Positions 22,304-44,268 of a stretch of DNA of 64,000 nucleotides are shown here, piece after piece. The position numbers were made by a program, and so were the translations under genes. Positions within the stretch are counted from its first letter, which is position 1. The number at the start of each line of letters is the position of its first letter. Origin of the DNA: an uncultured virus (IMG/VR IMGVR_UViG_3300049793_000365) (taxonomy: Duplodnaviria > Heunggongvirae > Uroviricota > Caudoviricetes); the IMG/VR virus record IMGVR_UViG_3300049793_000365; one strand, written 5' to 3'. The notes under the pieces are model-generated. The model searched no databases, was not told the origin of the DNA, and was given only the letters and a program-made list of their open reading frames with translations.

Positions 22304-22486
22304 ATGGTTAATTTCGATTACGCTTCTCTTTACCCAACAACGATGGTTGCATTTGACGATGTTGACAATGCTGTAATGAATCTATTACAACAGAGATTGA
22401 ATAATAAGAAAATGGAAGACCGCCTAAATAAAATTGATGATTTATTAAACGACAATGTGCAACACGAAGATAGAAGTAATTCGTAA
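22304..22486 (+). CDS. 60-aa peptide: PolB motif-A fragment plus tag
   Basis: NFDYASLYPTTM at N-terminus; RLNKIDDLL. Confidence 0.6.
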   Translation: MVNFDYASLYPTTMVAFDDVDNAVMNLLQQRLNNKKMEDRLNKIDDLLNDNVQHEDRSNS

Positions 22487-22763
22487 TTATATCAATAATC
22501 AGATTAGAGAAGATTTATTGAATGAGGCTAATAATATTATAGACTCGTGTGGTAATATGGATCTCAATAGACTGATAAATTGTATCAAGAGAGATAATAA
22601 ATCAAAGCCAGCAGGTCAAACATTCTATATGGAATTAGACTTTACTAAATCAAGACTTGTCTACTTCGGTAAGATGAAAGCAGATGGTGAGTTTGGAATA
22701 TCATTTGACTTAATACCTGATATGGTAGAACGCTGGCGAGAAGAAAAGCTTAACTCCCTTTAA
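22455..22763 (+). CDS. hypothetical protein, tagged
   Basis: Ends REEKLNSL. Confidence 0.7.
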   Translation: MCNTKIEVIRNYINNQIREDLLNEANNIIDSCGNMDLNRLINCIKRDNKSKPAGQTFYMELDFTKSRLVYFGKMKADGEFGISFDLIPDMVERWREEKLNSL

Positions 22764-23061
22764 GTATATTATCGATAGCGACATCGCGCTTATCTAACTT
22801 CGGTAGATGTGTTAAAGTAACTGGATGGCACATAGCCAATACAACATCTTCATACATTTTCCTTTTATCACCTATCTTTATGGAATCGTGATGTGGCATT
22901 ATACAAACGAATTCGTAGGCTCTTGAATCCTCATTTATAAAAACACTACGAGCTTCCCAGATACCATGTGATATAATATGAGAATCGTCTGATGGACTTC
23001 TACTTTCAAATGCAGGGTCTATCATCCACCAAGTAAGCAGTTTAATAGTGGGTCCAATCAT
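22750..23061 (-). CDS. hypothetical protein, tagged
   Basis: Ends RDVAIDNILKGS. Confidence 0.7.
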   Translation of the reverse strand: MIGPTIKLLTWWMIDPAFESRSPSDDSHIISHGIWEARSVFINEDSRAYEFVCIMPHHDSIKIGDKRKMYEDVVLAMCHPVTLTHLPKLDKRDVAIDNILKGS

Positions 23062-23327
23062 ACCGCTGGTTTATAATCTCGTTTAAGTGACTTTTTATAC
23101 TCAATGAATGTCTGTATTAAATAAGCAGGGTTTTTCTTACGACCAATCGAAACGATGTCATTTCTTAATGTTTTAAGTTGTTGGTCAGAATCTTCATCAT
23201 TAGTACCCTTATCAATATATCTCAACAGTGAGTAATAGACCGAGCTTCCTTCTAATGGTGCGTTTAGTAAATTGAACTGACTGAGTAAGTATATCGCATA
23301 CTTTTTTCTTTCGAGTGATGTAAACAT
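23058..23327 (-). CDS. hypothetical protein (truncated tag RDYK)
   Basis: Ends KRDYKPAV. Confidence 0.6.
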   Translation of the reverse strand: MFTSLERKKYAIYLLSQFNLLNAPLEGSSVYYSLLRYIDKGTNDEDSDQQLKTLRNDIVSIGRKKNPAYLIQTFIEYKKSLKRDYKPAV

Positions 23328-23338
23328 AGAGGTGTATT

Positions 23339-23623
23339 TTAGGCTATAACTTGTTTAATTTTTAAGTCGCGAACAATTGGTTTCATAATGGGATGTTCAG
23401 AATCAACTATATCATATTCACTATCACCGTCTCTATATACAATTGAAAATCCACGTTTCTGTAAATTATCCTTGTCGGTAGAATTTACCCTCAGTGGTAT
23501 ATTTAATTCAATTTTAGATAGCCCGTCATTTATGTTTTTAATAGAGTCTGTATCTGCTACATTAGTAATGAATTCGAATTCCTTATTACCCATAAATGGC
23601 TGTTTCACCAATACTATTCGCAT
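23339..23623 (-). CDS. hypothetical protein, tagged
   Basis: TATATTTG upstream; ends RDLKIKQVIA. Confidence 0.75.
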   Translation of the reverse strand: MRIVLVKQPFMGNKEFEFITNVADTDSIKNINDGLSKIELNIPLRVNSTDKDNLQKRGFSIVYRDGDSEYDIVDSEHPIMKPIVRDLKIKQVIA

Positions 23624-23661
23624 TCTACAAATATAGTGAAAAAGTCCGGAACTACCAAAAT

Positions 23662-23691
23662 AAAAACCCGATAAGTTATTACCGGGTTTTT
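23662..23691 (-). terminator. intrinsic terminator
   Basis: AAAAACCCG...CGGGTTTTT just after the stop of 23697-23969. Confidence 0.7.
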
Positions 23692-23696
23692 GTTAA

Positions 23697-23969
23697 TTAT
23701 TTTTTATTTGCTCTGTTTTTCCCAAGATGATAGCCATCACAAAAGATACATTTATAGTTACTAAAATGTACTCCGTGCTTTATGCTTAACTTCTGTGCTG
23801 ATTTGTTAGCAGTTGCTTTGGTATTATACATCACCTTTGGTTGTCCGTTGTCTCTTAGGTGGCTTCTCTTTGAGAAGAGACCAAGTACATGACCCTTAAA
23901 TAGATTACGGACGAATCTTTTGAGTGGCATTTGGTCTTTTAATCCTAAATATAAATTCTTTAGTTTCAT
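23697..23969 (-). CDS. basic protein with CxxC...H zinc-ribbon-like end
   Basis: YKCIFCDGYHLG. Confidence 0.7.
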   Translation of the reverse strand: MKLKNLYLGLKDQMPLKRFVRNLFKGHVLGLFSKRSHLRDNGQPKVMYNTKATANKSAQKLSIKHGVHFSNYKCIFCDGYHLGKNRANKK

Positions 23970-24307
23970 TCACTTTGTAGGTAATTTAATACGAATTGTT
24001 TATCTTCTGGGTATTTTATTAGCCAAAATTCTAAACCAGTGTAAATATTATTCTCACTATTTCTCGGAGAGCCTGAGAATTCTATGCTCTCAATTGGGGT
24101 ATCTTTTGTTATAGGTTCATTTGCTGTAACTCTACAATGAGCGCATCTTGCCGGTAATGGTAATACTCTCTTTGTATATCCAATGCTAACTAATTGTTCA
24201 TAGATAGGTTTATCTATGTTTAATTCCATGCGTGTTTTTTCTAACGCATAATAACGTAGTGCTTGTAATTCAGTATCTACATATTTAAATAATTCTTCTT
24301 TTGTCAT
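23966..24307 (-). CDS. hypothetical protein
   Basis: TATATTTG 5 nt before ATG. Confidence 0.7.
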   Translation of the reverse strand: MTKEELFKYVDTELQALRYYALEKTRMELNIDKPIYEQLVSIGYTKRVLPLPARCAHCRVTANEPITKDTPIESIEFSGSPRNSENNIYTGLEFWLIKYPEDKQFVLNYLQSE

Positions 24308-24344
24308 GTAGACAAATATACGGATTATATTAAGTATAAAAAAA

Positions 24345-24923
24345 TTATTTAACTAGGATAAGAGTCTTTTTTCCTTCACCCTCTTTGATTTTACCAGCAT
24401 CAGCTAATTCAGCAACTATACCGTAGAAGTCCATAAGGTCCCAGTGGTCGTTAAAGTTAGCACCACAAGCATCAAATAAATCCTTATTAGCCATTTCACC
24501 ACCGTTATCTTCAAGAGTCTTAAGTATCAATGCTTTTGTTTCATCTTTACCTTCCATCATCTTGACACCAGAGCCTTTCATACCAGACTCTTCATAACCT
24601 TTAGAATGAGCAGTGTATATCATAGAATCAAACAATTGGTCGTATGTCTTTATTTGCTCTTCGATTTGACTACCAAGAGCGTTTAATTTCTCAACCAATT
24701 CAGGCTTTAGAAACACAATACCTTTAGTTGGTAACGATTTAACTGGACCAAATTTAGAATTACCCTTTCTTAATTCAACTTCCGTTAAAGTAAATCCTGT
24801 TTTCTTATATGGCTTTCTACCAGCTTTAGCGTGTGTCGCATGGTCAGCAGACCAATTTCCTTGAACATCAAGTTCTGATTTATTAACGATTTCGAAGTTT
24901 TCGAATTTATGTAAGTGTTTCAT
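24345..24923 (-). CDS. leader-bearing protein, possible C-terminal winged helix
   Basis: MKHLHKFENFE; ILKTLEDNGGEM...VAELADAGKI. Confidence 0.65.
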   Translation of the reverse strand: MKHLHKFENFEIVNKSELDVQGNWSADHATHAKAGRKPYKKTGFTLTEVELRKGNSKFGPVKSLPTKGIVFLKPELVEKLNALGSQIEEQIKTYDQLFDSMIYTAHSKGYEESGMKGSGVKMMEGKDETKALILKTLEDNGGEMANKDLFDACGANFNDHWDLMDFYGIVAELADAGKIKEGEGKKTLILVK

Positions 24924-25014
24924 AAAGTATATATTATTATCTTGGACCGGTATCTGCTACCAGAATTTCATATCGTATATATAATATATACTTAACTAAA
25001 AAATAAGCTTTATA

Positions 25015-25941
25015 ATGAGATATTTAAAGAATATGAATAGCTTCCAGTCGCCAAACACTACTGAAGTTAAGCAAAATGAAGAATTAATCGAAGATGTTAC
25101 TCTACATAAAACACACGTTAAGAAGTTGGGTGATGTCGTTATACCAGATCCAGAACATGGTGATATAAAACTTAGCGTATTTCCTTTTGAAAACACAGGG
25201 GAATGGGTTAGCCTACCCGAATGCTTCAAAGCATGGGAGAAGTCATTTAACGAGGTTTTAAAGTCAATCCCATTACAAGAAGGTGCGAACACACACTATG
25301 TAACAATAGATTCTAAATTTTTCACTACTGGTGACTTCTTAAGAAGAGAAGGTGTTCACATGGATGGTAATTTCTGCGTAGACCCATATTTTAGCGGAAT
25401 CAGTGAGAAGAAAGAATGGGGCGGAGCATCTTATACGTGGGGTGGAGCATCTTACAAAGAAGAAGAAACGGAAGAAGAAAAAATACAGAATACTCGTGGT
25501 AAAAAGCTCAAAGAACTTCTTAAGAAGAAGAAAGCTAAGAAGAAACCAGGAAAAGTAGATGAGAGACAATATCATTTATATGAAGCAAAAGCTGATAACA
25601 GTCACGTAAAGATGGATTGGGTTTTGCCTTATAATATAGTCATTCCAATCGCACAATATGTAGCTGAAAAGAAGGGTGGTATCTTAACAGTATCGACAGA
25701 AGTAGGATGTCAAGCTTGGTCTGGTGAATTTCATGGTGAAGTATTATCAGAAGGAGCATTCACCGAAATGGAAAGCCAATTAACTGATGATAAAAAAGTA
25801 GTATTCGAAAAGAATGCTTTATACTTTATGTCAAGTAACACACCACATGAAACAATGTTCATTGATAAAGGGAAAAGAAGAACTTTCTTAAGAATAACAT
25901 TGAATCATAATTATAACAATGAAGCAATTTTAAACAAATAA
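25015..25941 (+). CDS. 2OG-Fe(II) dioxygenase-like protein with leader-like N-terminus
   Basis: REGVHMDG (HxD), TPHE (distal His), RTFLRITL; MRYLKNMNSF; TAATATATA upstream. Confidence 0.6.
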   Translation: MRYLKNMNSFQSPNTTEVKQNEELIEDVTLHKTHVKKLGDVVIPDPEHGDIKLSVFPFENTGEWVSLPECFKAWEKSFNEVLKSIPLQEGANTHYVTIDSKFFTTGDFLRREGVHMDGNFCVDPYFSGISEKKEWGGASYTWGGASYKEEETEEEKIQNTRGKKLKELLKKKKAKKKPGKVDERQYHLYEAKADNSHVKMDWVLPYNIVIPIAQYVAEKKGGILTVSTEVGCQAWSGEFHGEVLSEGAFTEMESQLTDDKKVVFEKNALYFMSSNTPHETMFIDKGKRRTFLRITLNHNYNNEAILNK

Positions 25942-25976
25942 CACAACTTATTACAATTAGGATCAATATAAATAGT

Positions 25977-26414
25977 ATGAAAAAGCAACTATTTATATTG
26001 ATCCTAATTTTGTTTTCATTCGGTGCTAAAGCTGGTGATACGGTTATGATTAAACCGATTAGATTTAGTATAAAATCAGAAATCTCCAAAGTATTATTTA
26101 ACGCATCTATTACTGGATGCTATGACACACTTACTAAATATTGTAATAGCAGTGTTACATTATATACCGACTTTGATGGTGAAACAAGAACAGAAGATGT
26201 ATCAGATGTTAAGCTTATATCAGAACTAAATGACTTCATTCAACAAGTTCCATTTACATATATGAAAGTATTAAATGGTAAAAATAAATTAAACGAAGAG
26301 GTCTTTGTGGTTGAATTATATTGGTCGAAAGACAACCCAGCACCACTTGTTCAGATGTTTTTTAGGTTGGATAGTAAAGAAGCAATAAGAGTAGTTGTTA
26401 TTTTAGCAAACTAA
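25977..26414 (+). CDS. secreted protein
   Basis: Signal peptide MKKQLFILILILFSFGAKA. Confidence 0.7.
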   Translation: MKKQLFILILILFSFGAKAGDTVMIKPIRFSIKSEISKVLFNASITGCYDTLTKYCNSSVTLYTDFDGETRTEDVSDVKLISELNDFIQQVPFTYMKVLNGKNKLNEEVFVVELYWSKDNPAPLVQMFFRLDSKEAIRVVVILAN

Positions 26415-26710
26415 TCACCGATAATCATATTTAATCTATCGTCTCTCATTTGAGTTCTATTTAAATAGAATTCGAATACGCGGTGGTCGTGATACTTCAA
26501 ACTAACCAACAAACATTCGTGTGGACCGATACGTGCTTCCTCCACCATATAGTCACTTACCTTTATTCCATGTACATTATAGACCATCCAATCACGTAAT
26601 TTATCGTGTATCTTTTCTTTGTTACCACCACTCGTTAAATATACAGTTTCTATTTCCCGCTTTATTTCTCTCTCACTATCAGTTAATAAAGCATCTAAGT
26701 CTATTATCAT
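26411..26710 (-). CDS. hypothetical protein, tagged
   Basis: Ends RDDRLNMIIGD. Confidence 0.7.
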   Translation of the reverse strand: MIIDLDALLTDSEREIKREIETVYLTSGGNKEKIHDKLRDWMVYNVHGIKVSDYMVEEARIGPHECLLVSLKYHDHRVFEFYLNRTQMRDDRLNMIIGD

Positions 26711-26973
26711 ATCAATGAATTCAGTTTATAGTCACGTCTCGCTTTTATATTAGGCTTAACTGTTGGGTCGTTTGTATCAATTATTAAGTATGAATTCTCA
26801 ATTGAACTATCCACTTCTTTAACAAAGAGGTCGTACCTATTGGGCTTCACTTGTGTGTGTTCAAGATAATACTCATCAACTTCTATATCATCATCACCAA
26901 CTTCGTTATCTAAGTCTATTAGATACCAATAATCAGCGGGTACATTTTGTGCTTTTACTTGAATACAGTTCAT
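26707..26973 (-). CDS. hypothetical protein, tagged
   Basis: TATATTTG upstream; ends RDYKLNSLI. Confidence 0.75.
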   Translation of the reverse strand: MNCIQVKAQNVPADYWYLIDLDNEVGDDDIEVDEYYLEHTQVKPNRYDLFVKEVDSSIENSYLIIDTNDPTVKPNIKARRDYKLNSLI

Positions 26974-27057
26974 TCCAACAAATATACGTTAATAAAATTA
27001 AAAAAACAAGGACAACTTATTTTCCTTACTGGGTATAACTATGGTAATATTATTGAC

Positions 27058-27297
27058 ATGAATTACTGCGAAATCTGTTATGTTTGGATTGATGAAGATT
27101 GGAAGTGCGATAGATGTGAGTGTCTATACTGCGAGTCTTGTTCTTCGCGATTCACTCTACACAACCAAATTGACTTCCCATGTTGTTTAATTTGTGCTGA
27201 CCAAATGCAATATATGCCCAAAAAATCCACTATACGAGAAAATAGACTTAATATTTTATTTAATATCATACCAGAATGGATGAGCCACAAAGAATAA
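27058..27297 (+). CDS. Cys-rich zinc-finger-like protein, tagged (start moved to MNYCE)
   Basis: Four CxxC pairs; RENRLNILF. Confidence 0.65.
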   Translation: MNYCEICYVWIDEDWKCDRCECLYCESCSSRFTLHNQIDFPCCLICADQMQYMPKKSTIRENRLNILFNIIPEWMSHKE

Positions 27298-27569
27298 CTG
27301 GTAATAAATACACCGTATCACTTAATAAGAAAAGTTATCCAGTTAGGGATAACCCAAACTCACTCGACCTAATCGAATTTAGAATAGACGCGGTGTTGAG
27401 TGTGATGTGTGGAAGAACATTTGAAACATTATCATTTAGCTACGACTTAGATACACATATTTTAAGAGTATTATCACCATTAGAAGATATCATAATTACC
27501 TACATATCAACAAGCGAATATAGAAATCAGAAACTAAATAACATCTTAGACAATGACAGCAATAAATAG
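27276..27569 (+). CDS. hypothetical protein, tagged
   Basis: RNQKLNNIL. Confidence 0.65.
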   Translation: MDEPQRITGNKYTVSLNKKSYPVRDNPNSLDLIEFRIDAVLSVMCGRTFETLSFSYDLDTHILRVLSPLEDIIITYISTSEYRNQKLNNILDNDSNK

Positions 27570-28302
27570 CAAAATAAAATATTACCTTGATAAATATTTA
27601 GAATTTGATTCAGATGAATTATTTAGAAATGCGGATTTAATGCTAATATTTGGCGGTTGTCTTCGTGATATAATAGCCAATCAAAAAATACACGACATTG
27701 ATATATTGTGTGGATCTAAATCTTGTAAACAATTACACGAGTTACTTGAGCGTAATGGATTTTCTTATAAGGAAAACTTAACACCGAAAGATTTAGCAAG
27801 CGTATATACTGAGATACACATTATAAATGAACCACACACATTCGTAAAAGGTGATAAGGTAGTTCAATTAATAAGACCTTCGATTGGATATCAAGATGCT
27901 GAGGAAAATTACAGAGGTTCGCTTACTAACTTGGTATTCGAAGTAGACCTTAGTTGTTGTGGCTTAAGTTACAATGGTAAAACTCTGATTGAAAATGTTA
28001 GAAATGCTGTACTACACTGTTGTAATAAAACATTTGAAGTAAGAAAGACTAAGATGAATTTACCAAAAAGAATACAACTCCGAACTTTTAAGTTAGAAGA
28101 GAGAGGTTGGGAAAATATAGAATCAACACCAGCACTCATTAGAGACGATAAAATAGATGCTATATTAAATAACAATGATGGTATTGATTACTCATTTGCG
28201 TGTGTTTATTCACCAGATGATAAATTATTTAGACCACAACAAGTAGTCAGCTTTGTAGATTTGGATTACTTTGATGATGATTTTTATGGAATTGAACTTT
28301 AG
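27553..28302 (+). CDS. nucleotidyltransferase (poly(A) polymerase/CCA-enzyme head-like), tagged
   Basis: IFGGCLRDII...HDIDIL; RDDKIDAIL followed by acidic tail. Confidence 0.7.
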   Translation: MTAINSKIKYYLDKYLEFDSDELFRNADLMLIFGGCLRDIIANQKIHDIDILCGSKSCKQLHELLERNGFSYKENLTPKDLASVYTEIHIINEPHTFVKGDKVVQLIRPSIGYQDAEENYRGSLTNLVFEVDLSCCGLSYNGKTLIENVRNAVLHCCNKTFEVRKTKMNLPKRIQLRTFKLEERGWENIESTPALIRDDKIDAILNNNDGIDYSFACVYSPDDKLFRPQQVVSFVDLDYFDDDFYGIEL

Positions 28303-28394
28303 AACGGCATGAAAAAGGGTTTGTAGTAAAGTTTGTAAACCAGAAACCCCGAAAAACACAGTGTAATGACAACTGTTAGACAAACTAAGCCGTT
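28303..28394. ncRNA. candidate structured RNA element
   Basis: Pairings 28303-08/28389-94, 28317-22/28344-49, 28358-62/28372-76 and crossing 28330-36/28380-86. Confidence 0.3.
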
Positions 28395-28428
28395 TAATTT
28401 TTAGTGTTTCATATATTATATATAGTTT

Positions 28429-28800
28429 ATGAAGCATTTAAAGAAGTTTAATGAGAATGAAAGCGCATATCCTGAGTTCGCTGATAAGTACGCTAAGATG
28501 AAAGCATCATTAGATGTCGCTTTGGTTGAATTTAGAGATGTTTATACAATAGATTCAGAAGGTAGTGGTGTACAAGAATATCCAAATGGATGCTTGGTAT
28601 ACAGAATCGAATTGGGTGAGTTTGGTAAAATGTCTGGTGTTTTTAAAAAGGAAGAATTATATAAGCTCAAAGAAGACTACGAAAATCTTATTAAAATAAC
28701 AGAAGCTTGTCAACGAGTTCTTAAGAAAATGTTTGCTGATGGATTTACTCAGAGCGATGTTTACATAAGTTCAAATAATATTTCTTTTCAAATAAAGTAA
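28429..28800 (+). CDS. leader-bearing protein, family A
   Basis: MKHLKKFNENE; CQRVLKKMFADGF. Confidence 0.7.
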   Translation: MKHLKKFNENESAYPEFADKYAKMKASLDVALVEFRDVYTIDSEGSGVQEYPNGCLVYRIELGEFGKMSGVFKKEELYKLKEDYENLIKITEACQRVLKKMFADGFTQSDVYISSNNISFQIK

Positions 28801-28943
28801 ATTAGGTTATGACTAAGGATGAAATCATAAAAAAGTGGATAGAGGAAAAGAAGAAGTGGGATAAGATGTGTAACGAACACGCTAAATATTACACTAATGA
28901 TGAGCGATTAAAAGCTATGAGCTATTCTACTATTATTGCCTTA

Positions 28944-29231
28944 TTACTTAGAGATATCAAGAACATGAGCTGACTGCCTATCTCTCCAATCAGAGAGACT
29001 TTCGAAATAGTCTGAGAAAATACAATCACCATACTCTTCTTTAAACTTATCAGGATAAGTAACTGGTATAAATCCGTACTCTGTTCTATTTACCGAAACC
29101 ATGTATATATCGGATAGTAATTCATATTGGTAGACTTTACCAAACTCATATAAGTTACCATCAAAGGTTAATAGTTCTTTAATACAAACACAACTATTGG
29201 ACATTTTTCTCTTTATATAATTGATATACAT
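28944..29231 (-). CDS. hypothetical protein, CxCIK...FxxYF family, tagged
   Basis: CVCIKEL...YEFGKVYQY...FSDYFESLSDWRDRQSAHVL. Confidence 0.7.
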   Translation of the reverse strand: MYINYIKRKMSNSCVCIKELLTFDGNLYEFGKVYQYELLSDIYMVSVNRTEYGFIPVTYPDKFKEEYGDCIFSDYFESLSDWRDRQSAHVLDISK

Positions 29232-29412
29232 TAATGATAATCACACCAATGTTAATTATAATTGTTGGTATTGCTGAAATGTGTATTCCGTAAATAAGAA
29301 ACATAATACAACCAAGTATATTAAGCATTCTGAGCTTCTTTATATCTTTCATAAGAAAGGATATAAAGACAACAAGTGCGGCTCCGTAGCCGAATAAATC
29401 CATAAAATTCAT
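29194..29412 (-). CDS. YgjV-like small inner-membrane protein
   Basis: GYGAALVVFISFLMKDIKKLRMLNILGCIMFLIYG; three TMs. Confidence 0.65.
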   Translation of the reverse strand: MNFMDLFGYGAALVVFISFLMKDIKKLRMLNILGCIMFLIYGIHISAIPTIIINIGVIIINVYQLYKEKNVQ

Positions 29413-29436
29413 CTGTATTATATAGTCTGATAAAGA

Positions 29437-29844
29437 CTATGTTTTTATTCTTTTTAAAGAAACCAATACCGTATCACCTATTGATTTAGAGCCATCATTG
29501 TGGTAGAATATACAGTTTGGTTCATAGCTCATTGTCTCGTAAGTGAATCCAAGATGTTTAGCTTTACTTATTCCTTTAACTAAAAGAGGTCGAAGTGTTG
29601 AGTTATATACTGATTTATTATCATAACCAGAAAGTAGAAAATTTATATAAATTAAATCTGCCTTATCAATGGTCATTCCAGAATCATATTCTTTACCATA
29701 TTCATAAACATAACCATCCACTTTATATGAAAATGCCCACTCAGATACATCAACATCATCGATTACCTCTGAAAAGATATACTCAATATCGCTATTCAAA
29801 GAAACTGACTCAGTAATAAGTTTGAATGATTTAATGTGTTTCAT
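29437..29844 (-). CDS. leader-bearing protein
   Basis: TAATATATA upstream; MKHIKSFKLITES. Confidence 0.7.
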   Translation of the reverse strand: MKHIKSFKLITESVSLNSDIEYIFSEVIDDVDVSEWAFSYKVDGYVYEYGKEYDSGMTIDKADLIYINFLLSGYDNKSVYNSTLRPLLVKGISKAKHLGFTYETMSYEPNCIFYHNDGSKSIGDTVLVSLKRIKT

Positions 29845-29890
29845 AATGTATATATTACAAAACTTGTTGTGACTTTATGAATATAAAAAG

Positions 29891-29966: not shown

Positions 29967-29967
29967 T

Positions 29968-36242: not shown

Positions 36243-36269
36243 AATCTATATATTCTAAAAATATACTGA

Positions 36270-36701: not shown

Positions 36702-36737
36702 CCTGTAAATATATGGATAAAAATAATAAAAAGCAAA

Positions 36738-37136
36738 TTAACCCTGTGTGCTTATACGTGGTTTATGTATCGTTAATTTAGTAGTCTTAATATCATTTGA
36801 TATTATCTTAGTTCTATATCCTTCTAGTTCAAGTTTAGACATAACCTTCTTTAATGCTTTAAGAAATTCAGAATATGTTTCAGCATATTCAATTCCAACA
36901 TCTATACTAGGATAATCGGAACCCATAAATGATTCATCTTTAAGAGTAAATTCACCTCTTGTATTTATATGCTCGAATATTATTGATACCACTACAACAC
37001 CACTTTCAAAATCTCTAAAATTTCTTCCTTCATCAAATATTAATACCTCAAATCTATCTGTTATTTCAATCATTGCTTCATCGAATAATGATTTGAGATT
37101 ACTAACCGACTCGTTAAATTTTTTTATACGTTTCAT
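36738..37136 (-). CDS. leader-bearing protein, family A
   Basis: MKRIKKFNES; LKKVMSKLELEGY. Confidence 0.7.
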   Translation of the reverse strand: MKRIKKFNESVSNLKSLFDEAMIEITDRFEVLIFDEGRNFRDFESGVVVVSIIFEHINTRGEFTLKDESFMGSDYPSIDVGIEYAETYSEFLKALKKVMSKLELEGYRTKIISNDIKTTKLTIHKPRISTQG

Positions 37137-37215
37137 GTCATATATATTTGCTTAAATATTTGCAAACTCTATTTTTTGTCCATATATTTGCATACACTCT
37201 AAAATTAAAAATCAT

Positions 37216-37629
37216 ATGTTCTTTTTTCAGCAACCAAATCTATTAACTGACGAAGATGTTTTAAAATCTATCTCAGCAATGCCGCATGACGTTATCGATA
37301 TAATCGAATTATATAATATCGATGTTAAAAAATACGTCTCTTATAATTCCGGGCTTTTACAAACAGAGCCAATATTGAAGAATTATAATCTATTACCAAA
37401 TGATAGAAAAATTCTGATTGAGTATGCGATGAAACGCACAAAAGTACTCGCTAAAAAAGAAAAAGAATTATTATCTTATCTTAAGAAAGATATTGATAGT
37501 GGTGATTTCACTTTCGTACAAATGTATCACGACATGGCTATGCGATGTGATATGAGAAAGAAAGATATTGATTTATCTGACTTATATAAAGTTAAGTATC
37601 GCAAGTCAGAGAAAGTTAAAGCTAAGTAA
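37216..37629 (+). CDS. hypothetical protein
   Basis: TTTG-N20-TATATTTG at 37159-37190. Confidence 0.7.
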   Translation: MFFFQQPNLLTDEDVLKSISAMPHDVIDIIELYNIDVKKYVSYNSGLLQTEPILKNYNLLPNDRKILIEYAMKRTKVLAKKEKELLSYLKKDIDSGDFTFVQMYHDMAMRCDMRKKDIDLSDLYKVKYRKSEKVKAK

Positions 37630-38096
37630 TGTTTAAACACTTCGGATCATCAGCATTTTATAAACAGTTTGACCCTGCTCAATATGTAGAGAGGGTTAAG
37701 CTTCGCGCCTTATTAATCGAGGTTGCGTTTAAGGCTGGCTTCGAAGTGTACATGGATCTTGACTCTCAGTTGAAACTTCATCGCAAAGATGGTAAAATAA
37801 TTGAGTTCGCTAACAGAGGTGGATTTTCAGATGATGGTTATCATCTATATTCAATACGTCAATGGGCTGAATATAATCAAAACACTCCAATTGGTGAAAT
37901 GAAAAATCTATATGATAGAACTACAATGACTTCTGGTGGAAATGAAGAGACATACGGTTCTTACTGCATCTATCACGTACAAGGAGAGACAAGTGAAATG
38001 GTCAACTCACTTAAAGAACTAATATGTGAGGTCGAAAAGTTATTCAAAGATGATATCAGGGATTATAAATTAGAAAAATTTATCAATGAACATTGA
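37629..38096 (+). CDS. hypothetical protein, tagged
   Basis: RDYKLEKFI. Confidence 0.75.
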   Translation: MFKHFGSSAFYKQFDPAQYVERVKLRALLIEVAFKAGFEVYMDLDSQLKLHRKDGKIIEFANRGGFSDDGYHLYSIRQWAEYNQNTPIGEMKNLYDRTTMTSGGNEETYGSYCIYHVQGETSEMVNSLKELICEVEKLFKDDIRDYKLEKFINEH

Positions 38097-38433
38097 AGAT
38101 AAAATAAAGAACACAAACTTGAAAGTGATTGCCCGTTATAGCGGTGATAATATCACAGAAGGTGAAGTGTATGATGTAATTGATATTGAAACATTCACTC
38201 TTGAGAAGCCACACAATGGTGCCAAGACAGTCGAACGTGTTTTTATGCTACGCATTCTGATTGATGATGAAGAATATCTACTAAACCTTAATTGTTTCAA
38301 TGATTACGATGAATTAAGACGCGAGTTAAAATTACGAATGCTATCTGGTCATAGTTCTATATCAGAAAAGACATCAAAACTAACTATTAGTCAATTATTA
38401 GATTTAGTATCTGTTCGATATGGATCTGATTAA
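38086..38433 (+). CDS. hypothetical protein, sub-terminal tag
   Basis: RELKLRML. Confidence 0.65.
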   Translation: MNIEDKIKNTNLKVIARYSGDNITEGEVYDVIDIETFTLEKPHNGAKTVERVFMLRILIDDEEYLLNLNCFNDYDELRRELKLRMLSGHSSISEKTSKLTISQLLDLVSVRYGSD

Positions 38434-38469
38434 TTTGCATATCCGGATTTTTATCCGTAAATTTGTTTT

Positions 38470-39192
38470 ATGTTAAGACTCAATTTCAAAAACCCAGATA
38501 TGTTTGAATATAGATTCAAGCGCAAACCAAAAATGTGGACGCTTGAACAATTATATGATTTATGGGAACGAACTATTGAAAGAGCCGCACTTAGAGCGAT
38601 TGAACGCAATAAGATAGTTAACGATATAGTTGCTAATATACCAACAACTAAGAGATATCAAGAGGACACACATATCGTATTTTTCACACCACATCACGGT
38701 GGACATGATGGTGATAGTCTTTACTACTATTCATTCTCATATAACAAAGAGTTTGAATGCTATGCTCATAGTTCTGAGCAATATATTCCTAATAAAAACG
38801 AATTAGAGCTTCGTGATGAAAAGTTATATCAAATGTTAAATCCATTAGCATTTGAATTGGGTCAGAAATATTACGAGGCTAAGAGATTAGATACGAATCT
38901 ACAATATCGCATTCGTCATATTTTATGGGATGAAGTAGAAGAAATATTACGCGAGAAGTACAAAGGTAAAAGACCACCTGAGATTTTCACCATTGATTTA
39001 TGTGGACATAAATATTTCGTACACACTGACCCACAAAGTAGAGGTTATTGGAATAAATTCGAACTAAAAGGAGTGTGCAACTTTAATGAAACAATTTATA
39101 TAAATGAGCTAAGTGAATCTCAGAAGTCTATCAAAAAACCTGTAAAGTCTAAGAAGACCAAAGGAGATAGAACTGAAATAATGACCTCTTAG
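38470..39192 (+). CDS. hypothetical protein whose TAG stop lies inside the tRNA gene
   Basis: TTTG-N20-TAAATTTG promoter (38434-38465); internal RDEKLYQML; TAG at 39190-39192. Confidence 0.75.
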   Translation: MLRLNFKNPDMFEYRFKRKPKMWTLEQLYDLWERTIERAALRAIERNKIVNDIVANIPTTKRYQEDTHIVFFTPHHGGHDGDSLYYYSFSYNKEFECYAHSSEQYIPNKNELELRDEKLYQMLNPLAFELGQKYYEAKRLDTNLQYRIRHILWDEVEEILREKYKGKRPPEIFTIDLCGHKYFVHTDPQSRGYWNKFELKGVCNFNETIYINELSESQKSIKKPVKSKKTKGDRTEIMTS

Positions 39193-39254
39193 CTCAGTGG
39201 TAGAGCCGGAGTCTCTAAAACTCCTGGTCGCGGGTTCGAATCCCGTAGAGGTCT
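39183..39254 (+). tRNA. tRNA with CUA anticodon (amber suppressor), CCA not encoded
   Basis: Acceptor GACCTCT/AGAGGTC, D arm GCTC/GAGC, anticodon arm GGAGT-CTCTAAA-ACTCC (CTA 39215-39217), T arm GCGGG-TTCGAAT-CCCGT, discriminator T. Confidence 0.93.
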
Positions 39255-39272
39255 CAAATAAATAATATAACA

Positions 39273-39497
39273 ATGTTAAATCACGTATTCGGTATAGAAA
39301 GAAATAGCAGTGAATTCTTTGTTATGCTATTAGGTACAAAGGAGCTTATAAAAGTAGATAATGAGAAAACAAAATTATCAGAAGTAGTCTTTACTACTGG
39401 TGAGGTTTTCACTGAATTTGATAAGCATTTCTATAAAGCAACTGAGGCTATTGCTATATTAGCACTCGATAGAAAAATTGAGCATATTATCTCCTAA
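39273..39497 (+). CDS. hypothetical protein, degenerate tag
   Basis: Ends LDRKIEHIIS. Confidence 0.6.
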   Translation: MLNHVFGIERNSSEFFVMLLGTKELIKVDNEKTKLSEVVFTTGEVFTEFDKHFYKATEAIAILALDRKIEHIIS

Positions 39498-39714
39498 ATA
39501 TTGTATATGTAATTCTATACCAGAACATCATCCATTAATTGAGATTGATGTTATTTATGAATATACAAATCCTAATAGAGAATTTATTATTAAAATAAGT
39601 GATATACTCGGATGTAGTTTTGATCCAGGTGTCTTCAAACAACACTTCACAGACTGTACCAAAGAAACCACGCGGGATTATAAAATAGAATTGATAGTTT
39701 CACAACATATTTAA
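39478..39714 (+). CDS. hypothetical protein, CxCIK...FxxYF family, tagged
   Basis: YCICNS...FKQHF...RDYKIELIV. Confidence 0.65.
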   Translation: MSILSPKYCICNSIPEHHPLIEIDVIYEYTNPNREFIIKISDILGCSFDPGVFKQHFTDCTKETTRDYKIELIVSQHI

Positions 39715-39724
39715 TATATAACAA

Positions 39725-40105
39725 ATGAAACACCTCAAACCTATATTCGAAACACTTGCTTGGAAAGCACCAGAAGGTGATTTATTGATGTTCTTAGATA
39801 ACATCACTCAAGAGATAAAAGATGAATATGACGCAAATGTATCATATGAAGAAGGATATAAATACTTCAACTTCACTACCACCCATATTAAGGTTGAGTT
39901 CGACTTATCAAATAATGAGTTCAACTGTTTTAAGATAGCTGATTTGAAAGTTTTCAACAAAAGATTTCACGACATCAATGAGAAGTTGATAAAGATAATG
40001 GAGAAGCTTGAAACGGAAGGCTATTGGTGTAGTATAACACTTGACTTAATTGGTGGGGAAACCAACTATATAATTGAATTTTCACAAAATAATTTAGATA
40101 AATGA
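39725..40105 (+). CDS. leader-bearing protein, family A
   Basis: MKHLKPIFET; LIKIMEKLETEGY. Confidence 0.7.
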   Translation: MKHLKPIFETLAWKAPEGDLLMFLDNITQEIKDEYDANVSYEEGYKYFNFTTTHIKVEFDLSNNEFNCFKIADLKVFNKRFHDINEKLIKIMEKLETEGYWCSITLDLIGGETNYIIEFSQNNLDK

Positions 40106-40290
40106 TGAGCTTACAAAAACTTGAGTCATTCGGTGACTTTAAAAAACCAAAAGTCAACTTAGATGAATATGCTCCGGTAATGACCAAAGATTGTGAGGGT
40201 ATGTGTGACAGAAAACCAGTTAAGACACCAGATGGTGTGGTAATAATATGTGACGGTTGTAAACGAATCGTTATGGATAACCGCAAATAA
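40102..40290 (+). CDS. small Cys-containing protein, weak leader
   Basis: MMSLQKLESF; CEGMC...CDGC. Confidence 0.6.
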   Translation: MMSLQKLESFGDFKKPKVNLDEYAPVMTKDCEGMCDRKPVKTPDGVVIICDGCKRIVMDNRK

Positions 40291-40330
40291 CATCCTTGCT
40301 TTTCTAATTAATTTTTCATATATTTACAAC

Positions 40331-40561
40331 ATGGATGCTAATCAATGTTTATGTGAAAAAGACTGCTCAATAAAAGATAGTGGTATGGTTCACTTATTTA
40401 GAAGAGATACATACTACAATGTTGAGCAAACTATATTAGGATTTCGTATTATAAATGGTAACCGAAAAGTATTTCTCGGTAAGGATCTCTTTAAGCGATA
40501 TTTTATAGATTCTTCTGACCATCGCGAACGCCAAATCAATAAGCTAATTGAAAACCTTTAA
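40331..40561 (+). CDS. hypothetical protein, CxCIK...FxxYF family, tagged (start moved)
   Basis: TATATTTA upstream; CLCEKD...FKRYFIDSSDHRERQINKLI. Confidence 0.7.
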   Translation: MDANQCLCEKDCSIKDSGMVHLFRRDTYYNVEQTILGFRIINGNRKVFLGKDLFKRYFIDSSDHRERQINKLIENL

Positions 40562-40856
40562 AGAAATATTTATTGAATCATTACAACGAAAATGTTGTGG
40601 TTGTAAAAGGCTAATTGATATCTCAGAAGAGAAGTATTTCATATTACTAAAAACAGATAGGCAGATAATAAGAGGTGTTATATTATCAGTTCTTACTTGT
40701 GGCTTATCAACACTATTCGAATCTGGTCATAAGAATATTTGCGAAGTGTGTCAACGTGACTACAAATTAAAAGGGCTAATGAAGAATAAAGATATTGGAG
40801 CCACGGTCAGTATAGGACCAATGGAAAATTTTAAAAAAATAAAAAATACATTATAG
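40548..40856 (+). CDS. Cys-containing protein, sub-terminal tag
   Basis: CCGC...CEVCQRDYKLKGLM. Confidence 0.6.
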   Translation: MKTFKEIFIESLQRKCCGCKRLIDISEEKYFILLKTDRQIIRGVILSVLTCGLSTLFESGHKNICEVCQRDYKLKGLMKNKDIGATVSIGPMENFKKIKNTL

Positions 40857-41233
40857 TGTTTAGTGCTAAACTACAATCTGATATTGATGCTATGATTCTA
40901 TCTAGTAAGAAAGAGCTTGATTGTTACTTACAAGAGATAATAGATGATTATGAAATGACCTATGTTAAATGGGCTAATGGTTCATTTCTTTATTCTATAA
41001 ATGATAAGTTCAGTATAGATGAAAATTTCCTAAAAGTAATTAATACGGCACAGAAAAAATTAAGAAAGCTTGGATTATCTGTTACTATATCATTCTCACA
41101 AGAATTCCCTATGGAAGAACTCAGACACATACTTGTTGATGATTTAATAAAATTGGTTGATAAGTACAAGGATAAACCATATGTATTTAGTGAGATAAGA
41201 CGAGCAAGATTTTACATAAAAGATATACGTTAA
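40856..41233 (+). CDS. family B paralogue lacking the leader
   Basis: ELDCYLQEIIDDYEM...AQKKLRKLGL. Confidence 0.65.
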   Translation: MFSAKLQSDIDAMILSSKKELDCYLQEIIDDYEMTYVKWANGSFLYSINDKFSIDENFLKVINTAQKKLRKLGLSVTISFSQEFPMEELRHILVDDLIKLVDKYKDKPYVFSEIRRARFYIKDIR

Positions 41234-41260
41234 TTTTTGGACTTTCCTTATATTTGCTTT

Positions 41261-41452
41261 ATGAAGATGAAAACATATAAACCATATGACGGCATTAAAT
41301 ATGATGTTGTTATAGTAGATTATCCAACATTGATATTTGAACCAAAAGTATCAGAAGAAGTTACACGAATGGGTAGAAGTCTAATAAGACAATTAACACG
41401 CACAATGAAATTAGACCAACTTTTAAACGAAGAAGAAAATGACGGACAATAG
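41261..41452 (+). CDS. peptide with Walker-B-like fragment plus tag
   Basis: YDVVIVDYPTLI; RTMKLDQLL; TATATTTG 4 nt before ATG. Confidence 0.6.
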   Translation: MKMKTYKPYDGIKYDVVIVDYPTLIFEPKVSEEVTRMGRSLIRQLTRTMKLDQLLNEEENDGQ

Positions 41453-41804
41453 CGAATTTACTTATAACAAATGTAAATCACTCGACTTTAATATCGGTGA
41501 TAGATTTCATGAAATGTTTAGCTTCTGGGTTTGTATTATAGATATAACTGAAGAAGACCATGTAATAACATTAGAAGGGCATCCATCAAATGCACTGAAT
41601 ATGGTAATAAAAAAACAAACACGCGAAGAGTTATTTAAGAGATTAAAATATACATCACTTGATGCTTGTCATGTTTCATATAGTGATACATCACCAGATA
41701 CGGTCAGTGGTTGGTTGAGACATTATAAAAACGAAATGGTAGCTAATGGTAAAGCTGATAGAAGAGGTTTGGAACTATCCCTGATGTTCAATGATATTGG
41801 TTAA
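41439..41804 (+). CDS. hypothetical protein
   Basis: RGLELSLM, degenerate tag. Confidence 0.65.
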   Translation: MTDNSEFTYNKCKSLDFNIGDRFHEMFSFWVCIIDITEEDHVITLEGHPSNALNMVIKKQTREELFKRLKYTSLDACHVSYSDTSPDTVSGWLRHYKNEMVANGKADRRGLELSLMFNDIG

Positions 41805-42036
41805 GCCTATATATGATATAGAATTATCACAGGGTAATCGCTTAGTTAAATTAAGTGGTAATATTTGGTATGAACTTAAGGTATCGAAAATAAATGATAT
41901 AGAATCTTTACAAATTATAATTCCGACACTAACGTTTCCGGATAACGTTGTTATAATCGAGAAGGTTCTTCTAAATAACTATTTCATAACAAAGGAAGAA
42001 GATAGAAATATTAAAATTGATAACATTTTAGAATAA
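41791..42036 (+). CDS. hypothetical protein, tagged
   Basis: NNYFITKEEDRNIKIDNILE. Confidence 0.7.
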   Translation: MILVKPIYDIELSQGNRLVKLSGNIWYELKVSKINDIESLQIIIPTLTFPDNVVIIEKVLLNNYFITKEEDRNIKIDNILE

Positions 42037-42557
42037 TGGGAAAAGATACTAACGCAAAAGCAGAATTCATTCAACACGTAAATGGTAGAAGAGTTTTATG
42101 TGCTACTATAAGTCTTGATTATCCTGAATATGATGATGAAGAAAATGAAAAAGATTATAAACACGTTCTTACAACTGGTTATACATCTGATGAGTATTCA
42201 CAATTTTTAGAATCTCTTGATAAAAAATATGATAGTGGTTATGGCGGGCAAAGATTATTTGGAACTATCTGGTATAAAGACGGTACTTGGTCTTCTCGTG
42301 GCGAGTATGATGGATCTGAATGGTGGGCGCATCATACGTGTCCTATAATACCAAAAGATATTCGCAGAATTGATAAAGAAAGAGAAGAAAAGTTGGATGA
42401 TATCATGAATGGTCATAACACCGAAACTGAGCTTACTACATATTCTAAATTTGAGAATAGAATAATGGAGTGGGCGAATGGTAATGAGACTGCTGGTAAA
42501 CTAACCAGAGATTTATTTAATATTCTAAATAATGATGATAAATTAAAATCGTCTTAG
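42036..42557 (+). CDS. phage hypothetical protein, internal tag
   Basis: YDSGYGGQRLFGTIW...RGEYDGSEWW; REEKLDDIM. Confidence 0.75.
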   Translation: MGKDTNAKAEFIQHVNGRRVLCATISLDYPEYDDEENEKDYKHVLTTGYTSDEYSQFLESLDKKYDSGYGGQRLFGTIWYKDGTWSSRGEYDGSEWWAHHTCPIIPKDIRRIDKEREEKLDDIMNGHNTETELTTYSKFENRIMEWANGNETAGKLTRDLFNILNNDDKLKSS

Positions 42558-42775
42558 GATAGTAAATCATCTATCTTTCTATTTCTATCATCAATTTTTC
42601 TTAGCCTTTCGAATTCCATTCGATAGATAGAATCAAACACCATTTGTTGTTGAAAATAGCTTTTACCAATTTGTCTTGTTCCTTGTATGATGTAGATTTC
42701 CTTAGGTGCTAAACCAAGTCTGTCTTCTGGTACACCACATTTAGCTTCTAAATATTCTTTAAGTCCACTAATCAT
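42554..42775 (-). CDS. 73-aa peptide with P-loop fragment plus tag
   Basis: IIQGTRQIGKSY; ends RNRKIDDLLS. Confidence 0.65.
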   Translation of the reverse strand: MISGLKEYLEAKCGVPEDRLGLAPKEIYIIQGTRQIGKSYFQQQMVFDSIYRMEFERLRKIDDRNRKIDDLLS

Positions 42776-43049
42776 CTAATAGAGTTGTTAAATTTTTATC
42801 TCGTAATTGTTGCTTTGTATAAAAGTAATCAGTGAAACGTTCTTCTTCACATGAGTAAATATAAGTGTGACCACCTTTCTCAATAGTGCTAACATAAATT
42901 GTTGGTGAGCGTGAGTTATCTATACACGTTGTAAATTGCTCATTGAGTGGCATTGGTATACTTCTACGAGAAGGTCTAACCATTTCACTCATAGATAGTA
43001 CAACATTTTTATACTTATTGTTGTGACATATAGTTGTGAAGCATTCCAT
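42768..43049 (-). CDS. hypothetical protein, tagged, paralogue of 51190-51543 (start moved)
   Basis: FTTICHNNKY...YFYTKQQLRDKNLTTLL. Confidence 0.7.
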   Translation of the reverse strand: MECFTTICHNNKYKNVVLSMSEMVRPSRRSIPMPLNEQFTTCIDNSRSPTIYVSTIEKGGHTYIYSCEEERFTDYFYTKQQLRDKNLTTLLDD

Positions 43050-43071
43050 TGTATAAATTACTTTTAATAAA

Positions 43072-43101
43072 AATGGGAACCAATTTTCACTGGTTCCCAT
43101 T
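43072..43101 (-). terminator. intrinsic terminator after AP2 gene
   Basis: AATGGGAACCA / TGGTTCCCATT, T-run on minus strand. Confidence 0.7.
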
Positions 43102-43122
43102 AGCTTTTAAGGCGACTCGAAA

Positions 43123-43404
43123 TTAGATTTCGTTTAGAAGACCTCTGCTTTTCGCTTCGCTTCTTCCGTAGAATTTAATAACAAGTGAGTTGTAAGCCTT
43201 CGCTGCTTCAACAGCAGTATCGAAATGACTTCCGTACTCCTGACCATCGAACCCGATTCTTGTTCTGTATTTCACAGTACCAGAAGCATAAGTTCTTTTG
43301 TAAACACCGTTATACTTTTTCATTTTAACGGATGAAGACTTACTCGCGCTCTTAGCGCCTTTTTTGTTTCTTTTTGACATTTTGTTATGATTTAAGTTAA
43401 ACAT
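43123..43404 (-). CDS. stand-alone AP2-domain DNA-binding protein
   Basis: YNGVYKR...KYRTRIGFDGQ...GSHFDTAVEAAKAYN; basic N-tail. Confidence 0.8.
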   Translation of the reverse strand: MFNLNHNKMSKRNKKGAKSASKSSSVKMKKYNGVYKRTYASGTVKYRTRIGFDGQEYGSHFDTAVEAAKAYNSLVIKFYGRSEAKSRGLLNEI

Positions 43405-43440
43405 AGTGTTATAAGCTGGCCGGTTGATGAAGTTGTCTCA

Positions 43441-43478
43441 AGATACTTGATATCATTGAACTTTCATATCAAGTATCT
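43441..43478. repeat. 13-bp perfect inverted repeat
   Basis: AGATACTTGATAT-N12-ATATCAAGTATCT upstream of AP2 gene. Confidence 0.8.
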
Positions 43479-43542
43479 GATTATCAGTTAATTAATTTTC
43501 AAAATATTTATTTTTTGGTAATATGGACATTTTTTTGTATAT

Positions 43543-43812
43543 TTGGATAAAAATTATATGGACATGATAAAACACACTTATTTAGTAGCAGACAAAAAGG
43601 TAACGGGTAAAGTAGACGTTGAATTTTCTGACGTGAATGAAGACTTCTCATTCAAGGTTACAGGTCCCATCGGCATATTAAGCAAAATATGTGGCGGTTT
43701 AGGTAAGGAAAACTTTGAACAGAACACCGTTGTCATAACTGAGAAAGAACTTAAAAGCGAATCTCAGAGATTGTATGTTCTTACTGAGCTTGCACAATTG
43801 GCTTCAAAATAG
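43543..43812 (+). CDS. hypothetical protein
   Basis: True start probably an internal ATG after TATATTTG. Confidence 0.6.
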   Translation: MDKNYMDMIKHTYLVADKKVTGKVDVEFSDVNEDFSFKVTGPIGILSKICGGLGKENFEQNTVVITEKELKSESQRLYVLTELAQLASK

Positions 43813-43844
43813 TATTTTTAAGCTATAAACTTAAACTAATCAAC

Positions 43845-44111
43845 ATGAGTATTTGGGAAGATTGCGAAAAGCATGGCGCTGTTCCGTTTTATGGATTTCC
43901 AGTAAAGCCTAAACTAGAGAATGGTTTAATTATCTGGGAATTTCCAATTGGTTATGAACCAAATGGTAGTCAGACAAAAGAAGTAGCAGAAAAGCTACAT
44001 AAGATAGTGGGTGGTGAACTCATTGAAGTAACTGATAAAGTTATAAAAATCAAACCAGAGGAAACTAAGCTGGGATATCTAATTTATAAAGCATTTTTAG
44101 ATGAACGATAG
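43845..44111 (+). CDS. hypothetical protein
   Basis: 88 aa ORF. Confidence 0.65.
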   Translation: MSIWEDCEKHGAVPFYGFPVKPKLENGLIIWEFPIGYEPNGSQTKEVAEKLHKIVGGELIEVTDKVIKIKPEETKLGYLIYKAFLDER

Positions 44112-44268
44112 AAAGTTAATAAGCATTGACATCGATGGTGTAATGAGTGACTATTTTTCTAAATCTAAAGAGCAAGAAATATTAGCTAAACAAGCCAAGA
44201 GAGAGTCCAAGATTGATAAAATACTCAGCGAAGATGATAGAGAAGAAGATACTGAAACTAATTCTTAA
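44101..44268 (+). CDS. 55-aa peptide with HAD motif-I fragment plus tag (not in ORF track)
   Basis: MNDRKLISIDIDGVMSDYFSKSKEQEILAKQAKRESKIDKILSEDDREEDTETNS. Confidence 0.6.
   Translation: MNDRKLISIDIDGVMSDYFSKSKEQEILAKQAKRESKIDKILSEDDREEDTETNS

Follow-up and report, generated by a model that had tools for sequence, protein, structure and literature searches.

Tagged micro-proteins in a giant phage that each carry one catalytic-motif segment resembling a core phage enzyme

Introduction

A 64,000-nucleotide stretch of DNA from an uncultured Caudoviricetes virus (IMG/VR record IMGVR_UViG_3300049793_000365), referred to here as the window, contains four open reading frames (ORFs) whose products, 55 to 73 amino acids (aa) long, each join a single catalytic-motif segment to a C-terminal tag that recurs across the window and its relatives. 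Judged from sequence, the four ORFs are genuine small genes, their products cannot be enzymes, and three of the four belong to conserved families in which the motif and the tag are under selection and the rest of the protein drifts. We regard them as selected motif-plus-tag proteins, neither enzymes nor chance resemblances. The explanation that we consider best, and to which we give about an even chance, is that these real small genes, with their selected motif and tag, would act as mimics or baits of segments of core proteins. The window is part of a 711,805-bp phage contig, and its closest named relatives are the uncultured phages LR756504.1 (636,363 bp) and LR745206.1 (634,780 bp). The four micro-ORFs, named by their lowest coordinate, are as follows (nt, nucleotides).

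22304-22486, plus strand: micro-protein of 60 aa; family B DNA polymerase (PolB) motif A at residues 3-13 (nt 22310-22342), tag R40-L48 (nt 22421-22447), 12-residue tail.
41237-41452, plus strand: micro-protein of 71 aa with a TTG start; DnaB-type Walker B G19-I33 (nt 41291-41335), tag R55-L63 (nt 41399-41425), 8-residue acidic tail.
42554-42775, minus strand: micro-protein of 73 aa; beta-strand and Walker A I27-S39 (nt 42659-42697), tag R64-L72 (nt 42560-42586).
44101-44268, plus strand: micro-protein of 55 aa; NT5C-type HAD motif I segment R4-E24 (nt 44110-44172), tag R34-L42 (nt 44200-44226), 13-residue acidic tail.

Four small genes with a common tag

A first-pass annotation of the window had described these ORFs as intact frames carrying one motif string and the tag, and all four are present as described: FDYASLYP at residues 4-11 of ORF 22304 (FDYASLYPTT fills residues 4-13), DVVIVDY at residues 23-29 of the 71-aa form of ORF 41237 (63 aa when counted from the ATG at 41261), GTRQIGKS at residues 32-39 of ORF 42554 and IDIDGV at residues 9-14 of ORF 44101. 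Their codon usage is that of genes, with scores of 0.35-0.57. The mean score is 0.31 among 67 small genes; among 77 shadow ORFs it is -0.07, and none of the latter (0/77) reaches the scores of the four. The operon positions claimed for them are real in three of four cases, where the upstream gene is separated by a 3 nt gap or overlaps by 8 nt or 11 nt; ORF 22304 stands behind a 48-nt spacer. ORF 41237 ends in TAG, and read-through would lengthen its product by 5 residues only. The idea that the micro-ORFs are decayed full-length pseudogenes was rejected, as tblastn with the parent proteins finds motif pieces only. With 55-73 aa and a single motif each, the products are too short for enzymes, as the annotation had said.

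The tag has the consensus R-[DN]-x-K-[IL]-x-x-[LI]-[LI], and the stop codon comes 0-3 residues later. Strict C-terminal matches number 36 among 151 window ORFs compared to 0.05 in shuffles. When an ORF is counted as tagged if a position-specific scoring matrix (PSSM) exceeds a threshold of 5.5 (99.5% of shuffles) near the C-terminus, the tagged fraction is 55/150 in the window, 144/955 in LR756504.1 and 170/971 in LR745206.1. Position 2 of the tag depends on lineage, being K in LR756504.1 and D or N in the window and LR745206.1. All four micro-ORFs lie well above the threshold, with PSSM scores of 14.7 (22304), 10.3 (41237), 20.4 (42554) and 22.6 (44101). The residues that follow the tag number 12, 8, 1 and 13 in the same order. 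A tail as long as 8-13 residues, which three of these micro-ORFs have, is out of the ordinary: among 38 tagged ORFs, 33 have 0-3 residues there. Recent DNA duplication was considered as the source of the tag and rejected, the matches being no longer than 21 nt.

One protein of a relative may bear on how the tag is used. A 701-aa AAA+ unfoldase of the ClpA/ClpC type (Pfam AAA_2, E 1.9e-71), encoded at 423224-425329 of LR745206.1, contains a UVR motif, and a copy of this motif recurs in a tagged 99-aa ORF at 296085-296384 of the same genome. We see the unfoldase as a candidate for reading the tag.

One motif segment in each micro-protein

Comparisons with parent enzymes were made with the genes of the relatives LR745206.1 and LR756504.1. 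The parents found in these relatives are DnaB_C (E 5e-20 and 1.5e-22), NT5C (E 1.6e-17), Terminase_6N and the capsid protein Gp23, together with a family B polymerase. In both relatives this polymerase is split in two: an N-part holds the exonuclease and motif A, a C-part holds motifs B and C, and the two lie more than 100 kb apart, with the break, as judged by eye, in the fingers helices.

LR756504.1 255869-257356 and 537992-539218: split PolB (L004/L006).
LR745206.1 232803-234344 and 130568-131992: split PolB (L005/L003).

In the six frames of the window, the number of motif strings expected is 0.00086 for the PolB core, 0.025 for the DnaB-type string, 0.00067 for G.RQ.GK[ST] and 0.0058 for HAD motif I, and the reversed patterns give 0 hits. 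Because there are many famous motifs to choose from, these expectations alone are only suggestive, and it is the family evidence given below that places the motif matches beyond chance. Across 2.67 million six-frame residues, 0.018 matches to the pattern D[FY][ASN]SLYP would be expected and 6 are present. The PolB genes account for two of them, and another three are located in ORFs that are tagged or score as borderline for the tag.

Smith-Waterman alignments of ORFs 22304, 41237 (from the ATG at 41261) and 44101 with the relatives' enzymes fall exactly on the catalytic motifs. ORF 22304 aligns with the PolB N-parts of both relatives on motif A, at scores reached by 7 and 4 of 5000 shuffles. 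It is unmatched by PF00136 and PF03104 even at E up to 10, and it lacks the exonuclease domain and motifs B and C; at 60 aa and without these matches, ORF 22304 is not a polymerase. ORF 41237 aligns with the relatives' DnaB at scores reached by 1 and 9 of 5000 shuffles, and its Walker B or H2 segment (hhhDY.T.h) pairs GIKYDVVIVDYPTLI with GIKIDMVIVDYLTIM of the LR756504.1 DnaB (1/5000 shuffles). The annotation had called this string Walker-B-like, which is borne out and can be refined to the DnaB-helicase type. The ORF has no Pfam match at E up to 10, no P-loop in its sequence and no PF03796 domain.

ORF 42554 is the only one of the four with a Pfam match. Its residues 25-66 match positions 2-48 of the 129 in Pfam AAA_14 (PF13173) at E 7.8e-5, with 23.1 bits where the cut-off is 27, and its Walker A is followed by no Walker B. 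The annotation had likened this P-loop to that of terminases. By eye, the P-loop of the micro-family to which it belongs does resemble a terminase Walker A; as a pairwise parent, however, terminase is unsupported, because 738 and 242 of 1000 shuffles reach the Smith-Waterman scores. Neither ORF 22304 nor ORF 42554 gave anything relevant in a phmmer search of PDB sequences, and none of the four ORFs has a match in PHROGs.

Residues 4-24 of ORF 44101 align with residues 3-23 of the LR745206.1 NT5C at a score that 0/5000 shuffles reach, and in an unbiased best-hit test of the micro-ORFs against 953 large proteins this ORF alone stands out (z 3.7). It has no Pfam match (PF06941) and lacks motifs II-IV, the tag coming about 20 residues after motif I. 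The C-terminal half of the ORF resembles, at 57.7% over 26 aa, the module that closes the proteins of a separate tagged family (76-84 aa), and the profile of that family finds ORF 44101 at E 0.063 (rank 6). By these two alignments, the ORF looks like a chimera of an NT5C N-terminus and the C-terminal module of another tagged family.

Micro-families under selection

Whole-protein comparison and family-level comparison gave different answers on conservation. The annotation had named lack of conservation as grounds for refutation; this lack is real for the whole proteins and untrue for the families. A degenerate D[FY]ASLYP pattern led to a second site in LR745206.1, where a 79-aa ORF carries both motif and tag. 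When 12 codons of this ORF are compared with the resident PolB, 13 of the 36 bases are different, yet the residue is changed in only 2 of 12. Scans for close relatives with ORF 22304 and with this 79-aa ORF found none; synteny of a neighbor gene succeeded instead. A search of IMG/VR with that neighbor, of 212 aa, gave 26 loci in relatives of LR745206.1, and at 13 of these a 43-82-aa ORF with motif and tag lies just downstream. Two further loci have a variant motif (SLYS in L090, a degraded form in L085). No homolog of the 212-aa gene adjoins ORF 22304 itself, and the PolB N-part of LR745206.1, used as a query, retrieved close relatives of LR745206.1 only. When 12 members of this family are aligned with ORF 22304, the conserved blocks are the motif and the tag, and the Asp and Tyr of the motif are kept in 13/13 members through synonymous codon changes.

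A hidden Markov model (HMM) of the polymerase-motif family, built without the window ORF and run against 4,848 ORFs, finds the PolB N-parts at E 1.3e-4 and 1.8e-3 and ORF 22304 at E 5.4e-3 as the best window ORF; 0/2000 whole-sequence or body-only shuffles of ORF 22304 reach its score. A second neighbor-gene search gave 13 loci for the other two families, that of the DnaB-type Walker B and that of the RQxGKS P-loop, which adjoin each other in the relatives' loci. The corresponding HMMs, again built without window sequences and run against the 4,848 ORFs, return ORF 41237 (E 3.1e-3) and ORF 42554 (E 0.016, just above the usual inclusion line of 0.01) as their best non-training hits, and 0/2000 body-only shuffles of either ORF score as high. 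The RQxGKS HMM finds the LR745206.1 terminase at E 0.48 only, and the members of this family are 44-66 aa long with a layout of strand, P-loop and helix. These profiles and shuffles argue against the other outcome that the annotation had named as refuting, namely motif matches no better than chance.

The comparison of nonsynonymous with synonymous change that the annotation proposed was run as pN/pS, the ratio of the proportions of nonsynonymous and synonymous differences, from non-independent pairs over 9-15 columns. The ratios for motif, tag and rest are 0.36, 0.40 and 0.72 in the polymerase-motif family, 0.44, 0.29 and 0.81 in the Walker B family, and 0.48, 0.36 and 0.76 in the RQxGKS family. 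Motif and tag are therefore the best-kept parts of all three families, which indicates selection on the motif peptide.

Tagged pieces of the capsid protein extend the pattern in the relatives. Among 127 small tagged ORFs of the three genomes, 3 match three different parts of Gp23, all of them in the relatives. The segments copied correspond to Pfam profile positions 8-34, 132-163 and 308-356, and the ORFs are 61-75 aa long.

LR756504.1 415901-416098: tagged ORF copying a Gp23 segment.
LR745206.1 222206-222391: tagged ORF copying a Gp23 segment.
LR745206.1 255010-255237: tagged ORF copying a Gp23 segment.

The first piece comes from the conserved first quarter of Gp23, which we take to be where the Gol region of phage T4 lies; the pieces could not be mapped onto Gol, there being no PDB match to align with.

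Interpretation and alternatives

In the mechanism that we propose, the body of each micro-protein would reproduce one active-site segment, the core beta-strand and catalytic loop of a core phage enzyme: motif A of family B DNA polymerase, Walker B of DnaB helicase, Walker A of a terminase or AAA-type ATPase, and motif I of NT5C/HAD. The tag helix of the clade would follow and, in three of four, the 8-13-residue tail. Such genes could have originated when a piece of a core gene was joined to a tag-bearing 3' module, as ORF 44101 may exemplify. The motif segment would then be a mimic or bait of a part of a core protein that cannot change, and it might be read by a host sensor, by a chaperone or protease, or by the enzyme's own partner strand. 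The tag would dock the micro-protein to one partner common to 15-37% of the clade's proteins. The annotation had offered decoys or mimics as one of two readings; the preferential keeping of motif and tag in three families speaks for it, and the function itself is what we infer.

Published work offers possible readers. Immune sensors of bacteria read capsid protein, terminase, DNA polymerase and RecA-fold helicase (10.64898/2026.01.04.697583), and Avs3 reads terminase active-site residues together with bound ATP (PMC13601566). For the Gol trigger of Lit, a capsid segment of 29 residues is enough by itself (PMC3014915). A more specific and more tentative form of the mimic reading, which we consider possible though improbable, is a library of decoys that pair an epitope with a handle: segments read by host immunity would be displayed, and the tag would hand the binder to a common machine for sequestration or destruction. 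If this is true, the decoys would let the phages counter pattern-recognition immunity at the level of peptides.

Several observations weigh against reading the micro-proteins as mimics or baits. Within the folds of the parents, the segments in question lie buried as strands and loops, and mimicry of a folded surface is therefore excluded. Tags are as frequent in small ORFs with BLAST similarity to large proteins (15/58) as in others (204/790). In the unbiased best-of-953 test, ORF 41237 reaches z 1.1 and ORF 22304 falls outside the top 25, and ORF 42554 has no match among the P-loop proteins of the relatives, terminase included. Searched as a whole protein against 5.77 billion clusters, ORF 22304 finds only itself near its length and nothing longer, and ORF 42554, against 1.84 billion representatives, finds itself and one spurious repeat protein. 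The family E-values of the window ORFs are modest (0.003-0.016), and the pN/pS ratios share the narrow, non-independent basis given with them. Finally, the motif is not kept by every family member: L094, at a polymerase-motif locus, has none, and across the families it is lost or degraded in L085, L094 and L118.

Some of these points would also fit an origin without function, in which the micro-ORFs are by-products of gene birth, random scraps on tag-bearing 3' ends with no motif-specific role. This was the second reading in the annotation, and ORF 44101, with its NT5C segment (0/5000 shuffles) and borrowed C-terminus (57.7% over 26 aa), is the kind of chimera that it predicts; as a general process the joining is unproven. 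Neither relative has a homolog for 130/150 of the window ORFs, so that turnover must be rapid; no whole-protein homologs of ORFs 22304 and 42554 were found, and scrap-like small ORFs are not enriched in tags. Catalytic motifs would moreover be the recognizable scraps, because a reading by eye sees famous motifs only. Random scraps would not, however, be expected to keep their motif better than its flanks in three families when pS is about 0.5-0.6 in the same columns, or to present the same polymerase segment in the window, in LR745206.1 and at 13 IMG/VR loci. The LR745206.1 micro-ORF, with 13/36 bases altered relative to PolB and only 2/12 codons altering the residue, points the same way, and we consider the by-product explanation unlikely.

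Less probable still is that the micro-proteins work by themselves as phosphate- or Mg-binding mini-modules which, docked through the tag or as oligomers, would bind nucleotides, polyphosphate or single-stranded DNA (ssDNA). Each of the four motifs is a loop that follows a beta-strand and binds metal or phosphate, the catalytic Asp or Lys is kept, and the RQxGKS family (44-66 aa) has the strand, P-loop and helix layout of such a module. Designed beta-(P-loop)-alpha polypeptides of 40 residues bind ssDNA as well as nucleoside triphosphates (NTPs), and their oligomers separate strands (10.1101/2020.07.30.228619). The tagged capsid-protein pieces in the relatives do not fit this explanation.

The micro-proteins might instead be dominant-negative poisons that strike enzymes of the host or of competing phages, with the strand disturbing how a polymerase, helicase, terminase or capsid protein folds or assembles. 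The parents are indeed assembly-dependent or multi-subunit machines, the motif flanks of the polymerase-motif micro-family are unlike those of the resident PolB of 120 relatives, and eukaryotic microProteins sequester larger relatives (PMC4807768). The copied pieces are not known interface elements, however, and the proposal overlaps the mimic or bait reading, from which its target alone differs; we hold it to be improbable. That ordinary small tagged proteins resemble famous motifs by chance, as suggested by the noise-level generic similarity of ORFs 22304 and 41237 and by the roughly 40 hits at E <0.05 expected among 790 small queries where 58 were seen, is very improbable given the low motif-specific expectations, family HMMs built without window sequences, body-only shuffles that never reach the real score (0/2000) and the AAA_14 hit of ORF 42554 (E 7.8e-5).

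Other features of the window

The window has a G+C content of 32% and is tightly packed with small ORFs on both strands; 150-151 non-overlapping ORFs were counted, covering 94% of it. Only 20/150 of these ORFs have a homolog in LR745206.1 or LR756504.1, and synteny is absent, which marks the window as a hypervariable region. The ORF at 25015-25941 (308 aa) has 57.7% identity to LR756504.1. Phage-like family matches are few: two DNA methylases, a 2-oxoglutarate-Fe(II) oxygenase, an HD domain and PHROG families. ORF 22304 is recorded on the one contig only, and exact matches to the contig were absent from IMG/VR and JGI metagenomes. The stretch of the window is contained in one soil metagenome DNA run, a possible source, and there are no RNA runs among the listed holders. 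Further features are the following.

10838-12286, plus strand: 482-aa protein; RNA polymerase alpha C-terminal domain at Pfam E 8.6e-15, and weak helix-turn-helix and recombinase matches.
39183-39255, plus strand: amber-suppressor tRNA, anticodon CTA (ARAGORN label Pyl; Rfam tRNA 67.9 bits).
50507-51004, plus strand: 165-aa protein; residues 1-39 match the ribosomal L7/L12 C-terminal domain over its first half (Pfam E 3e-7).
55286-55930, minus strand: tagged 214-aa protein with the PolB-like strings LYPSII, K..NS, YIDTDT and KKYAY.
21468, 21875, 28429, 33258, 34536, 39725 and 45194, plus strand: examples of ORFs that open with MK[HYR][IL]K.[FY]..
24345-24923, 29437-29844 and 36738-37136, minus strand: further examples of ORFs with this opening.

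Despite the CTA tRNA, TAG serves as a stop in this region, because several tagged ORFs end in TAG right after the tag. The L7/L12-like protein has a homolog in LR745206.1. The string MK[HYR][IL]K.[FY].. opens many window ORFs of 110-230 aa and looks like a second shared terminal motif or the mark of a paralog family. Upstream of genes (61 with spacers of at least 35 nt), words of the type ATTTGCAAA and TATATTTG are enriched 7- to 27-fold, and they resemble the Bacteroidota -7 promoter element. A sigma-70 scan found sites rarer than in shuffles and sheds no light on promoters.

The 214-aa protein has a 216-aa homolog in LR745206.1 (tblastn E 1.5e-14), which also bears PolB-like strings. In the window protein these strings are of motif A, B, C and KKY type. 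Thr replaces the Asp of motif A, hhalign against PolB gives E 0.11 over the motif C region only, Pfam returns nothing, and the AlphaFold2 model has a predicted local distance difference test (pLDDT) score of 41. In the ESM Atlas it falls in clusters where 10% of members carry DNA_pol_B, which is a lead only. The protein may be a miniaturized, inactive polymerase palm, its kinship to PolB being unproven.

Known systems and significance

A literature search that excluded supplements found neither such proteins nor the tag described. Several known systems share parts of the pattern. Eukaryotic microProteins (miP1a/b; PMC4807768) are likewise tiny parts of larger proteins that have lost the activity of the parent and are thought to engage the same partners. 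They keep a protein-protein interaction domain, whereas the phage proteins, known from their sequences, keep a catalytic segment of 10-20 residues and a shared tag. In the Gol region of T4 gp23, which acts on the Lit protease (PMC3014915), a short conserved segment of a core protein is itself recognized in the host. Gol, however, is an internal part of the complete capsid protein and sets off the suicide of the host, whereas the phage segments are free-standing tagged genes, with capsid pieces found in the relatives only. The targets of Avs/STAND sensors are the parents of the micro-proteins, and Avs3 reads active-site residues (10.64898/2026.01.04.697583; PMC13601566); these sensors recognize folded core domains, and the polymerases that they are reported to sense are of family A. 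The designed beta-(P-loop)-alpha prototypes (10.1101/2020.07.30.228619) share with the RQxGKS family a layout of about 40 residues of strand, P-loop and helix, yet they are laboratory constructs, and the natural proteins, which we know here as sequences, are tagged. T4 vs.8 (PMC13601566) is also a reduced paralog of the terminase ATPase kept by a phage, but it retains both Walker motifs and a predicted ATPase fold where the micro-proteins have one motif only.

If the reading of the micro-proteins as selected mimics or baits holds, giant phages would maintain families of 43-80-residue proteins that conserve only a catalytic-motif peptide and an address tag. The clade's unexplained tag would gain a concrete and testable cargo, and it would be linked to the very proteins that bacterial immune sensors read. 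Work on protein evolution would gain natural proteins made of a single strand-loop-helix motif. Many of the ORFan micro-genes of huge phages might then be traceable to core genes by search at the level of families.

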